From the sequence record NC_027387.1: 38,810 nt of DNA; one strand, written 5' to 3'. The notes below the pieces were generated by a model. The model saw only the letters and a program-made list of their open reading frames with translations. It did not search any database and was not told the DNA's origin. Of this stretch, positions 2,171-21,160 are shown piece by piece. This stretch comes from Escherichia phage CICC 80001. A program made the position numbers and the translations under genes. Numbering within the stretch: the stretch's first letter is position 1; every line of letters starts with the position of its first letter.

Positions 2171-2614
2171 ATGCTGGAATTTTTACGTAAGCTGGTCCCT
2201 TGGGTTCTCGCTGGGATGCTATTCGGATGGGGATGGCAACTTGGGGCTGACTCAATGGACGCTAAATGGAAACAGGAGGTACAGAATGAGTACGTTAAGA
2301 GAGTTGAGGCTACAGCGAGCACTCAAAGAGCACTCAATGAAATATCGGCTAAGTATCAAGAAGACCTTGCCGCGTTGGAAGGGAGCACTGATAGGATTAT
2401 TACTGATTTGCGTAGCGACAATAAGCGGCTGCGCGTCAGAGTCAAAACTACCGGAACCTCCGATGATAAGTGTGGATTCGAGCCTGATGGTCGAGCCGAA
2501 CTTGACGAGCGAGATGCTAAAAGTATTCTCGCAGTGACCAAAAGGGGTGACGCGTGGATTCGCGCTCTACAGGACACTATACGCGAACTACAGCATAAGC
2601 AGGAGGTTAAGTAA
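2171..2614 (+). CDS. 18.5: Inner-membrane spanin gp18.5 (Rz-like)
   Basis: 147 aa [22 protein letters not shown]..., matches T7 gp18.5. Confidence 0.9.
2286..2537 (+). CDS. 18.7: Outer-membrane spanin gp18.7 (Rz1-like), embedded in gene 18.5 in another frame
   Basis: [15 protein letters not shown]... with lipobox-like [11 protein letters not shown]; matches T7 gp18.7; listed ORF 2241..2537 trimmed to the conserved Met. Confidence 0.8.
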   Translation: MSTLRELRLQRALKEHSMKYRLSIKKTLPRWKGALIGLLLICVATISGCASESKLPEPPMISVDSSLMVEPNLTSEMLKVFSQ

Positions 2615-4386
2615 TGAGTAAAGGTGTATCCGCTCAGTCCAATCGTAATGCGCTCGTTGTGGTGCAACTAAAGGGTGACTTCGTGGCGTTCCTGTTCGTC
2701 TTATGGAAGGCGTTAAACCTACCAGTACCTACTAAGTGTCAGATTGATATGGCTAAGGTATTGGCGAATGGGGATAACAAGAAGTTCATCCTACAGGCTT
2801 TCCGTGGTATCGGTAAGTCATTCATCACTTGTGCGTTCGTTGTGTGGTCATTATGGAGAGACCCTCAGTTGAAGATACTCATCGTATCAGCCTCTAAGGA
2901 ACGTGCAGACGCTAACTCCATCTTCATCAAGAACATCATTGACCTACTGCCGTTTCTCAGTGAGTTGAAGCCGAGACCCGGACAGCGTGACTCTGTGATT
3001 AGCTTTGACGTTGGTCCTGCTAGTCCTGACCACTCTCCTAGTGTGAAGTCAGTAGGTATCACTGGTCAGTTAACTGGTAGCCGTGCTGATATTATCATTG
3101 CGGATGACGTTGAGATTCCGTCTAACAGTGCAACTATGGGTGCCCGTGAAAAGCTATGGACTCTCGTTCAGGAGTTCGCTGCGTTGCTTAAACCACTGCC
3201 TACTTCTCGTGTCATCTATCTGGGTACACCTCAAACTGAGATGACTCTCTATAAGGAACTTGAAGATAACCGTGGGTACTCCACTATCATCTGGCCTGCT
3301 CTGTATCCAAGGACTCGCGAGGAAAACCTCTACTACTCTCAGCGTCTGGCACCAATGCTCCGTGCTGAGTACGAGGAGAATCCTGAGGCGCTCGCTGGGA
3401 CTCCTACGGACCCTGTGCGCTTCGACCGTGATGACCTGCGTGAGCGTGAGTTGGAATACGGTAAGGCTGGCTTCACGTTACAGTTCATGCTTAACCCGAA
3501 CCTGAGTGATGCCGAGAAGTACCCTCTGAGGCTCCGTGACGCTATCGTAGCGGCCTTAGACTTAGAGAAGGCCCCAATGCATTACCAGTGGCTTCCGAAC
3601 CGTCAGAACATCATTGAGGACCTTCCTAACGTGGGCCTTAAGGGTGACGACCTGCATACATACCATGAGTGCTCAAATAACTCTGGTCAGTATCAACAGA
3701 AGATTCTGGTCATTGACCCAAGTGGTCGTGGTAAGGACGAAACAGGGTACGCTGTACTGTACACCCTCAATGGTTACATCTACCTAATGGAAGCTGGTGG
3801 TTTCCGTGATGGCTACTCCGATAAGACCCTTGAGTTGCTCGCTAAGAAAGCTAAGCAATGGGGAGTCCAGACGGTTGTCTACGAGAGTAACTTCGGTGAC
3901 GGTATGTTTGGTAAGGTGTTCAGTCCTATCCTTCTTAAACACCACAACTGTGCTATGGAAGAGATTCGTGCTCGTGGTATGAAGGAGATGCGTATTTGTG
4001 ATACCCTTGAGCCAGTCATGCAGACTCACCGCCTTGTCATTCGAGATGAGGTCATTAGGGCCGACTACCAGTCCGCTCGCGATATAGACGGTAAGCATGA
4101 CGTTAAATATTCACTGTTCTACCAGATGACCCGTATCACTCGTGAGAAAGGTGCTCTGGCACACGATGACCGATTGGATGCCCTTGCGTTAGGCATTGAG
4201 TATCTCCGTGAGTCCATGCAACTGGATTCCGTTAAGGTAGAGGGTGAAGTGCTTGCTGACTTCCTTGAGGAGCACATGATGCGTCCTACAGTAGCTGCTA
4301 CGCATATCATTGAGATGACTGTGGGAGGAGTTGATGTGTACTCTGAGGACGATGAGGGTTACGGTACATCTTTCATTGAGTGGTGA
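2614..4386 (+). CDS. 19: Terminase large subunit / DNA maturation protein gp19
   Basis: 590 aa, near-identical to T7 gp19 over most of its length. Confidence 0.97.
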
Positions 4387-18684: not shown

Positions 18685-20841
18685 ATGATCGTTTCTGACA
18701 TCGAAGCTAACGCCCTCTTAGAGAGCGTCACTAAGTTCCACTGCGGGGTTATCTACGACTACTCCACCGCTGAGTACGTAAGCTACCGTCCGAGTGACTT
18801 CGGTGCGTATCTGGATGCGCTGGAAGCCGAGGTTGCACGAGGCGGTCTTATTGTGTTCCACAACGGTCACAAGTATGACGTTCCCGCATTGACCAAACTG
18901 GCTAAGTTACAGCTTAACCGTGAGTTCCATCTACCCCGCGAGAATTGTATCGACACCCTTGTGTTGTCACGTTTGATTCACTCCAACCTGAAAGACACCG
19001 ATATGGGTCTGCTGCGTTCCGGTAAGTTGCCCGGTAAACGCTTTGGGTCTCACGCTTTGGAGGCGTGGGGTTATCGCTTAGGCGAAATGAAAGGTGAATA
19101 CAAGGATGACTTTAAGCGTATGCTTGAAGAGCAGGGTGAAGAATACGTTGATGGAATGGAGTGGTGGAACTTCAACGAAGAGATGATGGACTATAACGTT
19201 CAGGATGTTGTGGTCACTAAGGCTCTCCTTGAGAAGCTACTCTCTGATAAACATTACTTCCCTCCTGAGATTGACTTTACGGACGTAGGATACACTACGT
19301 TCTGGTCAGAATCCCTTGAGGCCGTTGACGTTGAACATCGCGCTGCATGGCTACTCGCTAAGCAAGAGCGCAATGGATTCCCGTTTGACACGAAAGCAAT
19401 CGAAGAGTTGTACGTAGAGTTAGCTGCTCGCCGCTCTGAGTTGCTCCGTAAACTTACCGAAACGTTCGGCTCATGGTATCAACCTAAGGGTGGCACCGAA
19501 ATGTTCTGCCATCCGAGGACTGGTAAGCCATTGCCTAAATACCCTCGCATTAAGACACCTAAAGTTGGTGGCATATTTAAGAAGCCTAAGAACAAGGCAC
19601 AGCGAGAAGGCCGTGAGCCTTGCGAACTTGACACCCGCGAGTACGTTGCTGGTGCCACATATACTCCGGTAGAGCACGTAGTGTTTAACCCTTCTTCCCG
19701 TGACCACATTCAGAAGAAACTTCAAGAGGCTGGATGGGTCCCGACTAAGTACACCGATAAAGGTGCACCTGTGGTGGACGATGAGGTCCTAGAGGTAGTA
19801 AAAGTAGATGACCCTGAGAAGCAAGCCGCTATCGACCTTATTAAAGAATACTTGATGATTCAGAAGAGAATCGGACAGTCTGCTGAGGGAGACAAGGCAT
19901 GGCTTCGTTACGTTGCTGAGGATGGTAAAATTCATGGTTCTGTTAACCCCAATGGTGCTGTTACTGGGCGCGCTACTCACGCTTTCCCTAACCTCGCACA
20001 GATACCCGGTGTCCGCTCTCCTTATGGTGATCGGTGCCGCGCTGCTTTTGGCGCTGAACATCACCTAGATGGACTCACAGGTAAGCCTTGGGTTCAGGCT
20101 GGTATAGACGCCTCAGGTCTGGAGTTGCGCTGCTTGGCACACTTCATGGCTCGCTTTGACAACGGTGAGTATGCTCACGAGATTCTCAATGGTGACATTC
20201 ACTGGAAGAATGCAATTGCTACTGACTTAGCACCAAACGTTGCCCGTGATAAACACAATAAGGAACACGACCTAATGCGAGATAACGCCAAGACGTTTAT
20301 CTATGGGTTCCTCTATGGTGCTGGAGATGAGAAGACTGGGCAGATTGTCGGTGCTGGTAAAGAGCGCGGTAAGGAACTCAAGAAGAAATTCCTTGAGAAC
20401 ACCCCTGCGATTGCGGCACTCCGAGAGTCTATCCAACAGACACTTGTTGAGTCCTCTCAGTGGGTAGCTGGTGAACAGCAAGTCAAGTGGAAACGTCGCT
20501 GGATTAAAGGTCTGGATGGTCGTAAGGTACACGTCCGTAGTCCTCACGCTGCCCTGAATACCCTACTGCAATCCGCTGGTGCGCTTATCTGCAAACTGTG
20601 GATTATCAAGACCGAAGAGATGCTCGTAGAGAAAGGCTTGAAGCATGGCTGGGATGGGGACTTTGCGTACATGGCTTGGGTACACGATGAAATCCAAGTC
20701 GGTTGCCGTACCGAAGAGATTGCTCAGTTGGTCATTGAGACCGCACAAGAAGCAATGCGCTGGGTTGGAGACCACTGGAACTTCCGGTGTCTTCTGGATA
20801 CCGAAGGTAAGATGGGTCCTAACTGGGCAGTATGTCACTAA
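18685..20841 (+). CDS. 5: gp5 DNA polymerase (family A, with 3'-5' exonuclease domain)
   Basis: 718 aa, near-identical to T7 gp5 except a roughly 14-aa insertion encoded around 20224..20280. Confidence 0.97.
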
Positions 20842-20860
20842 TTCTATAGGAGAAATTATT

Positions 20861-21160
20861 ATGGCTATGACAAAGAAATTTAAAGTGTCCTTCGACGTTA
20901 CCGCTAAGATGGTATCTGACGTTCAGGTAATCTTAGAGAAAGATATGCTGCACTTATGTAAGCAGGTTGGCTCCGGTGCGATTGTCCCCAATGGTAAACA
21001 GAAGGAAATGATTGTCCAGTTCCTGACACATGGCATGGAAGGCTTGATGACGTTCGTGGTACGTACAGCATTCCGTGAGGCAATCAAGGACATGCACGAA
21101 GAGTATGCCGATAAGGACTCCTTCAAACTCTCTCCTGCAACAGTACGGGAGGTGTTCTGA
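20861..21160 (+). CDS. 5.5: gp5.5 H-NS-binding protein
   Basis: 99 aa MAMTKKFKVSFDVTAKMVSDVQVILEKDMLHLCKQ..., near-identical to T7 gp5.5. Confidence 0.93.
   Translation: MAMTKKFKVSFDVTAKMVSDVQVILEKDMLHLCKQVGSGAIVPNGKQKEMIVQFLTHGMEGLMTFVVRTAFREAIKDMHEEYADKDSFKLSPATVREVF

Follow-up and report, generated by a model that had tools for sequence, protein, structure and literature searches.

The DNA polymerase gene of Escherichia phage CICC 80001 (gene 5) encodes a protein 14 amino acids longer than that of T7. Sequence comparison indicates that these residues are not a private insertion: the connector that joins helix N to helix O exists as two discrete alleles, and the extra residues belong to the longer one. 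The window analyzed here is the whole stretch of 38,810 nucleotides (NC_027387.1), which is the complete genome of the phage. The reading that we consider well supported is that this phage carries the long (W-type) allele of the helix N-O connector at the tip/back of the fingers, that the allele recombines between gene 5 backbones, and that it probably forms a self-contained structural module. The module would consist of a Trp507-anchored ordered loop and a longer O-helix, and would be interchangeable between T7-like polymerases. Its signature, conserved across distant polymerases, comprises Trp507, which directly follows the catalytic His506; the loop residues Arg521 and Asp522; and His528, which precedes the dNTP-binding Arg532 by one helical turn. 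A linked Ile-to-Thr change is found at Thr551, 19 residues further along. The features are listed in Table 1.

Table 1. Positions in the window of gene 5 and of the connector features within it.
Feature	Position	Strand	Basis
Gene 5, T7-type family A DNA polymerase, 718 aa	18685-20841	+	ORF; full-length alignment to T7 gp5
His506 codon (DIH motif, end of helix N), upstream anchor of the cassette	20200-20202	+	Invariant column in all alleles
Long W-type fingertip cassette, codons 507-531, 25 aa (T7 equivalent TKNQIAAELPT, 11 aa)	20203-20277	+	
42 nucleotides absent from T7 gp5, codons 517-530, including R521, D522, and H528	20233-20274	+	
Arg532 codon (T7 R518), first motif B residue on the O-helix, downstream anchor	20278-20280	+	Invariant
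Thr551 codon (T7 Ile537), short helix after the O-helix	20335-20337	+	Association scan

The gene 5 product is identical to YP_009152481.1 / AIM41079.1 by exact-sequence look-up and is annotated there as "DNA polymerase I". A phmmer search of all PDB chains aligns residues 1-718 with residues 1-704 of T7 gp5 (6n7w_H and 2ajq_A; 704 aa) at approximately 98% identity with one gap (1606 bits, E = 0). The match is collinear over the full length, covers both the 3'-5' exonuclease domain and the thumb insertion that binds thioredoxin, and places the protein in the T7 gp5 subfamily. Motif A (D475), motif B (R532, K536, and Y540), motif C (H667, D668, and E669), and the exonuclease residues D5 and E7 are all present. 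The columns of the catalytic motifs are invariant or nearly so in an alignment of 84 polymerases. The top gene 5 match in the phage collection is EG1, at 94.9%.

Downstream, gene 5.5 starts at approximately position 20861 (MAMTKKFKV...), 19 nucleotides (20842-20860) past gene 5. The 357-nucleotide ORF that separates genes 5 and 5.5 of T7 is missing from CICC 80001, and vB_Yep_9 has an HNH endonuclease in this interval. At the left end of the window, positions 1 to approximately 1600 have no megablast match in the closest genomes, where the alignments begin at approximately 1593-1610.

The 14 residues with no T7 counterpart lie between P516 and T517 of T7 in both the HMMER alignment and the codon alignment, with a gap placement that is ambiguous by one or two residues. 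The initial annotation had given lengths of 718 and 704 aa and a T7 sequence for this region, and both are exact in the T7 alignment. It had put the length difference at 20200-20290; a single 14-residue gap is found there, and the cassette (20203-20277) falls inside this interval. The substitutions around the gap are, in T7 numbering, T507W, Q510A, A513T, E514D, P516A, and T517M. Outside the cassette patch, the protein differs from T7 gp5 at approximately 10 of 700 positions.

The gap is in the fingers subdomain (T7 residues 472-584; bioRxiv 10.64898/2026.05.20.726333), between H506 and the O-helix residues R518, K522, and Y526 of T7, which agrees with the polymerase-domain location first proposed. 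The segment is polar and lies at the surface. The equivalents of the three O-helix residues, R532, K536, and Y540, are invariant in the 84-sequence alignment. An assembly artefact was considered and rejected because four independently sequenced Teseptimaviruses share the in-frame long allele, with 91.6-94.7% nucleotide identity in the patch. The CICC 80001 cassette has one private change, A513T (codon 513, 20221-20223), which gives IATDL where all other long-allele Studiervirinae have IAADL.

The connector can be sorted into two types using the spacer, defined here as the residues between the histidine of the DIH motif and the arginine of motif B. The short T-type has an 11-residue spacer and the consensus DIH-T[KV]NQxAA[ED]LPT-R; T7 has DIH-TKNQIAAELPT-R. 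The long W-type has a 25-residue spacer and the consensus DIH-W.NA.A.DLAP[ND]V.RDK..EH..M-R. In this analysis, a connector is classed as W-type if its spacer is 24-27 residues long and starts with Trp, if the loop contains Arg-Asp, and if a His stands at position −4 relative to the Arg of motif B. The gp5 of CICC 80001 is W-type, with a spacer of 25, W507, R521-D522, and H528.

Among the 120 nearest protein clusters at 90% identity, the only spacer values are 11 (115 clusters) and 25 (5 clusters). The W-type clusters number six when P0013 is included. For more distant polymerases, 1.84 billion representatives clustered at 50% identity were searched exhaustively with HMMER. The spacer is 11 in 73 of 150 representatives and W-type (24-27) in approximately 29 of 150. 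A third type, with a 24-residue connector (S.N.RALG.DPK..Y.V.GK...G ahead of motif B), was seen in approximately 14 of the 150 distant representatives; examples among the protein representatives are P0140, P0143, P0163, P0188-P0190, and P0219.

The long allele is also widespread at the DNA level. A 131-nucleotide probe of the long patch matches 77 phage records. The best matches are Escherichia phage EG1, Yersinia phage vB_Yep_9, Cedecea phage Yanou, and "Enterococcus" phage EFA-2, at 91.6-94.7% identity, and the 70-odd others are Klebsiella, Pseudomonas, Pectobacterium, and Escherichia phages at 70-80%. A 66-aa tblastn probe was compared with 60 evenly sampled phage records that encode a T7-like polymerase, and approximately 20 of these have the long spacing without a gap. 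Gene 5 of CICC 80001 aligns ungapped to EG1, vB_Yep_9, Yanou, and EFA-2, and gapped to most other Teseptimaviruses. "Enterococcus phage EFA-2" (MT350293.1) has the genome of a T7-like member of the Studiervirinae, and its gene 5 shares 90.7% identity with that of CICC 80001; the assignment to a Gram-positive host looks doubtful.

The long allele is found in Teseptimavirus, Foetvirus, Berlinvirus, and Przondovirus. At least four Studiervirinae genera contain both alleles, as do polymerases with only approximately 40% identity. The T to W, Q to A, and E to D flank changes invariably accompany the extra residues, including in SRT7 (Foetvirus), NJ2 (Berlinvirus), and vB_KpnP_cmc356ctg1 (Przondovirus), whose gene 5 is 73-76% identical in DNA to that of CICC 80001. 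The survey across T7-like polymerases thus replaces the insertion in this phage, as first described, with an old and widespread alternative allele. Changes of connector type counted by the Fitch method on NJ trees of the 50%-identity representatives number 40 observed and 46 shuffled, in a test without power; in split-half controls, ordinary columns behave alike, with a median ratio of 0.92-0.94 where the cassette gives 0.89-0.94.

The signature residues are conserved in deep W-type sequences. In polymerases approximately 40% identical overall, W507 is present in 100%, H528 in 96%, R521 in 91%, and D522 in 87%. An AlphaFold model of gp5 built with the 84-sequence alignment has a mean pLDDT of 92.4 and a pTM of 0.87, and matches T7 gp5 chains with TM scores of 0.92-0.97 (Foldseek). 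An earlier run with a shallow 33-sequence alignment (pLDDT 55.8) was discarded. In the prediction, helix N spans 505-512 and the O-helix 526-543, and the loop between them (513-525) is ordered and non-helical; the local pLDDT is 89-90. The modeled O-helix begins six residues ahead of Arg532. As modeled, the long form adds an ordered loop of 13 residues (513-525) and lengthens the O-helix at its N-terminal end by approximately 1.5 turns (526-531). The suggestion that the segment is simply a variable loop does not fit this level of conservation (87-100%) or the ordered state in the model.

From helical periodicity, His528 would share the O-helix face with Arg532, Lys536, and Tyr540. Putative contacts of W507, H528, R521/D522, and T551 are likewise deduced from periodicity together with conservation. 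The PDB contains no entry with a long-form connector, and T7 gp5 is the sole member of the subfamily there.

The allele state and the gp5 backbone are decoupled. With the cassette masked, CICC 80001 gp5 shares 98.3% identity with the T7 cluster (P0001; short allele) and 84.8% with the nearest long-allele cluster (P0003). P0003 itself (Przondovirus, long) is 97.4% identical to its nearest short-allele cluster and 87.5% identical to the nearest other long-allele cluster. P0004 (Berlinvirus, long) is 97.0% identical to a short-allele cluster and 97.0% identical to the long-allele P0010 of the same genus.

The closest genome overall is HZ2R8, with approximately 92% identity over 92% of the first 25 kb. 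HZ2R8 has the short allele, yet is 98-100% identical to CICC 80001 on both flanks. Its divergence is limited to gene nucleotides 1519-1593 and a small number of linked sites as far as nucleotide 1652. Yanou has the long allele on a T7/phiA1122-like gene 5 backbone (94.8% to T7). Compared with CICC 80001, Yanou is 77-82% identical at gene nucleotides 1231-1411 and 93-97% identical from approximately nucleotide 1441 on. The breakpoints therefore differ between genomes, which points to repeated short-tract homologous recombination. A second mosaic patch is present in gene 5 at 19915-20065 (gene nucleotides 1231-1381), where CICC 80001, EG1, and vB_Yep_9 differ from T7, phiA1122, and Yanou at approximately 20% of nucleotides. 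These differences are mostly synonymous; the amino acid changes are E449D/Q450R.

The exchange of alleles would take place between co-infecting T7-like phages on near-identical gene 5 backbones. The tract exchanged would be approximately 75-135 nucleotides, as estimated from CICC 80001 and HZ2R8, and the invariant flanking motifs would supply the homology. CICC 80001 then has a T7-like gene 5 with the long cassette, and both alleles circulate in the gene pools of several Studiervirinae genera. A recent import of the cassette from another genus was considered, but the data give no sign of one. SRT7, NJ2, and cmc356 are 80%, 76%, and 73% identical in the patch and 73%, 76%, and 75% identical in the backbone, respectively, and the two sets of values are about equal.

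The effect of the module, if any, would be on the mechanics of the fingers or on the surroundings of the triphosphate-binding face of the O-helix, and not on a docking site for thioredoxin or helicase. A modest effect of this kind is considered most likely, with functional neutrality as a strong rival.

It is possible, and we say so tentatively, that the two connectors are functionally equivalent and neutral. The W, RD, and H residues would then only keep the longer loop folded, and the distribution of the alleles would reflect drift with frequent recombination. Viable phages carry either allele on near-identical backbones, and no co-variation is seen in partner proteins (5 versus 6 genomes, described below). 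The site is also on the back of the fingers, where T7 position 514 accepts a bulky unnatural residue, a coumarin amino acid used as a reporter of fingers closure (PMC7857513). The distribution described above fits neutrality less well, as two forms shared by at least four genera and by lineages approximately 40% identical would be long-lived for a neutral polymorphism. The predicted position of H528, one turn away from R532 and on the catalytic side of the O-helix, also speaks against equivalence.

The opposite view, which we regard as unlikely, is that the short and long connectors are an ancient polymorphism kept by selection, the long form being either kinetically distinct or differently recognized by a host factor or defence system. 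A kinetic difference would have its basis in His528 before Arg532 and in the Trp507-anchored loop. If this view is true, the distinction would be in dNTP affinity, pyrophosphate release, discrimination of analogues, or the rate of fingers closing.

Whether partner proteins vary with the allele was addressed by an association scan from gene 1.6 to gene 6.7. The long-allele side has five genomes (CICC 80001, EG1, vB_Yep_9, Yanou, and EFA-2), and the short-allele side has six Teseptimavirus genomes (T7, phiA1122, HZ2R8, N30, IME390, and ESh6). In the replication module of these 5 versus 6 genomes, residues are disjoint between the allele groups only at gp5 507-531 and at gp5 551. Each differing position in 507-531 is perfectly associated with the allele state. 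Position 551 is Thr in the long group and Ile in the short group (ACT versus ATT in the codon alignment). Among the same genomes, no allele-associated position is found in gp4 (61 variable positions), gp2.5 (18), gp6 (16), or the small proteins of the replication region.

Across the Studiervirinae clusters, the site corresponding to 551 is Thr in all six W-type clusters, and in S-type clusters is Ile in 106 of 115 and Thr in 7 of 115. The pairs Thr507/Ile537 and Trp507/Thr537 (T7 numbering) look like size compensation. The pairing of Trp507 with Thr is not retained in deep lineages. The Thr551 association could also be plain linkage, because the codon is 60 nucleotides from the cassette and within the same diverged tract in HZ2R8.

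These results bear on a further reading, in which the long loop is adapted to contact a replisome partner (the gp4 helicase-primase, gp2.5, or thioredoxin). The initial annotation had likewise raised contacts with the processivity factor or the helicase. The segment is polar and charged, and a low-resolution (11.7 Å) model of helicase-driven unwinding sets the gp5 fingers against a gp4 subunit (bioRxiv 10.64898/2026.05.20.726333). A thioredoxin contact is unlikely because the binding loop is in the thumb (T7 257-327; bioRxiv 10.64898/2026.05.20.726333), which is another subdomain. A helicase contact is unsupported: in the 5 long- and 6 short-allele genomes, the allele shows no co-variation with any position in gp4, gp2.5, or gp6. 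The fork-contacting elements that have been named are W579 and K545/K549/K553, and not 507-517 (PMC8835902). Adaptation to a partner is accordingly rated as quite improbable.

A de novo insertion by slippage or duplication in the CICC 80001 lineage is a very poor explanation. Compared with T7 alone, the difference does resemble a clean in-frame insertion of 42 nucleotides. No direct repeat or duplicated source involving 20233-20274 is present nearby. The 25-residue cassette recurs with its flank changes in other genera and in distant polymerases, and the cassette identity of 56-84% in the other long alleles excludes a recent transfer from this lineage.

Least probable, to the point of being negligible, is that the cassette is the scar of a mobile element targeting gene 5, either a group I intron with an HNH endonuclease or an intein: Bas104, pO111, HZP2, and JeanTinguely do have an HNH-endonuclease-bearing intervening sequence in gene 5, but the split in these relatives is after approximately nucleotide 1983 (codon ~661), some 450 nucleotides downstream of the cassette, and the 42 nucleotides are in frame and translated with conserved residues, so that position and conservation refute this reading. 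The gene 5 ORF of CICC 80001 is uninterrupted and gives no sign of an intron or homing endonuclease. An intein was rejected separately, as 14 residues are too few (at least approximately 130 are required) and are part of the modeled mature fold. Rfam gives no intron match in 19900-20600 and no match at the insert. The RNA fold at the segment is not unusual (z = −0.36), and the other reading frames there contain no overlapping gene, only ORFs of 24-91 aa.

The intervening sequence of Bas104 and pO111 is approximately 620 nucleotides long, at positions 2484-3102 of their gene 5 loci, and contains a 131-aa HNH endonuclease ORF. The equivalent site in CICC 80001 is at approximately 20667 and has no insert. 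In pO111, the polymerase exons are annotated as two CDSs.

The W-type allele can be compared with several known systems. T7 gp5 (1T7P, 2AJQ, and 6N7W) shares the exonuclease, the thumb with its thioredoxin-binding loop, the palm, the fingers, and the equivalents of H506, R518, K522, and Y526. It differs in having an 11-residue connector and Ile537, whereas CICC 80001 has a 25-residue W-type connector and Thr551. EG1, vB_Yep_9, Yanou, and EFA-2 carry the long allele on the same genus-level backbone. Their cassettes differ from that of CICC 80001 at one or two residues (A513; V/I519), and the surrounding mosaics differ as well. SRT7, NJ2, cmc356ctg1, and distant T7-like polymerases share the 25 (24-27)-residue connector, W507, R521-D522, and H528. 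The backbones of these other-genus and distant long-allele polymerases are 40-85% identical, and the cassettes 56-84%. The linked Thr is kept in long-allele Studiervirinae and not in deep lineages.

Bacterial Pol I enzymes (Bst, Taq, and Klenow) have the same fold, and their connector is likewise between the DIH histidine and the R..K...Y of the O-helix. The connector span of Bst and Taq Pol I is intermediate: that of CICC 80001 is 8 residues longer and that of T7 is 6 shorter. To our knowledge, the W/RD/H signature is absent from the Taq and Klenow connector.

The group I intron with HNH in gene 5 (Bas104, pO111, and HZP2 by annotation) is similarly a length polymorphism of gene 5 that spreads among T7-like phages. 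It differs in being approximately 600 nucleotides long, non-coding for the polymerase, and located at codon ~661, whereas the cassette adds 42 translated nucleotides at codons 517-530. A gene 5 group I intron with an HNH homing endonuclease was reportedly described in phages PhiI and W31 by Bonocora and Shub in 2004.

The protein and genome sequences are already public, as is the long allele in several other deposited phages. No description of the connector dimorphism, or of the polymerases of the long-allele phages, was found in the literature searched. The value added here is modest and consists of recasting the "insertion" as an alternative module that is conserved, recombines, and has its own signature; the finding is otherwise an ordinary one. 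T7 gp5, from which Sequenase was derived, is a textbook system for studying polymerase fidelity and the dynamics of the fingers. A natural, conserved variant of the segment leading into the O-helix would be suited to cassette-swap enzymology. For genome annotation, lengths of 704 and 718 aa in T7-like polymerases may be read as normal variation between recombining alleles, and not as a lineage marker or a novelty.
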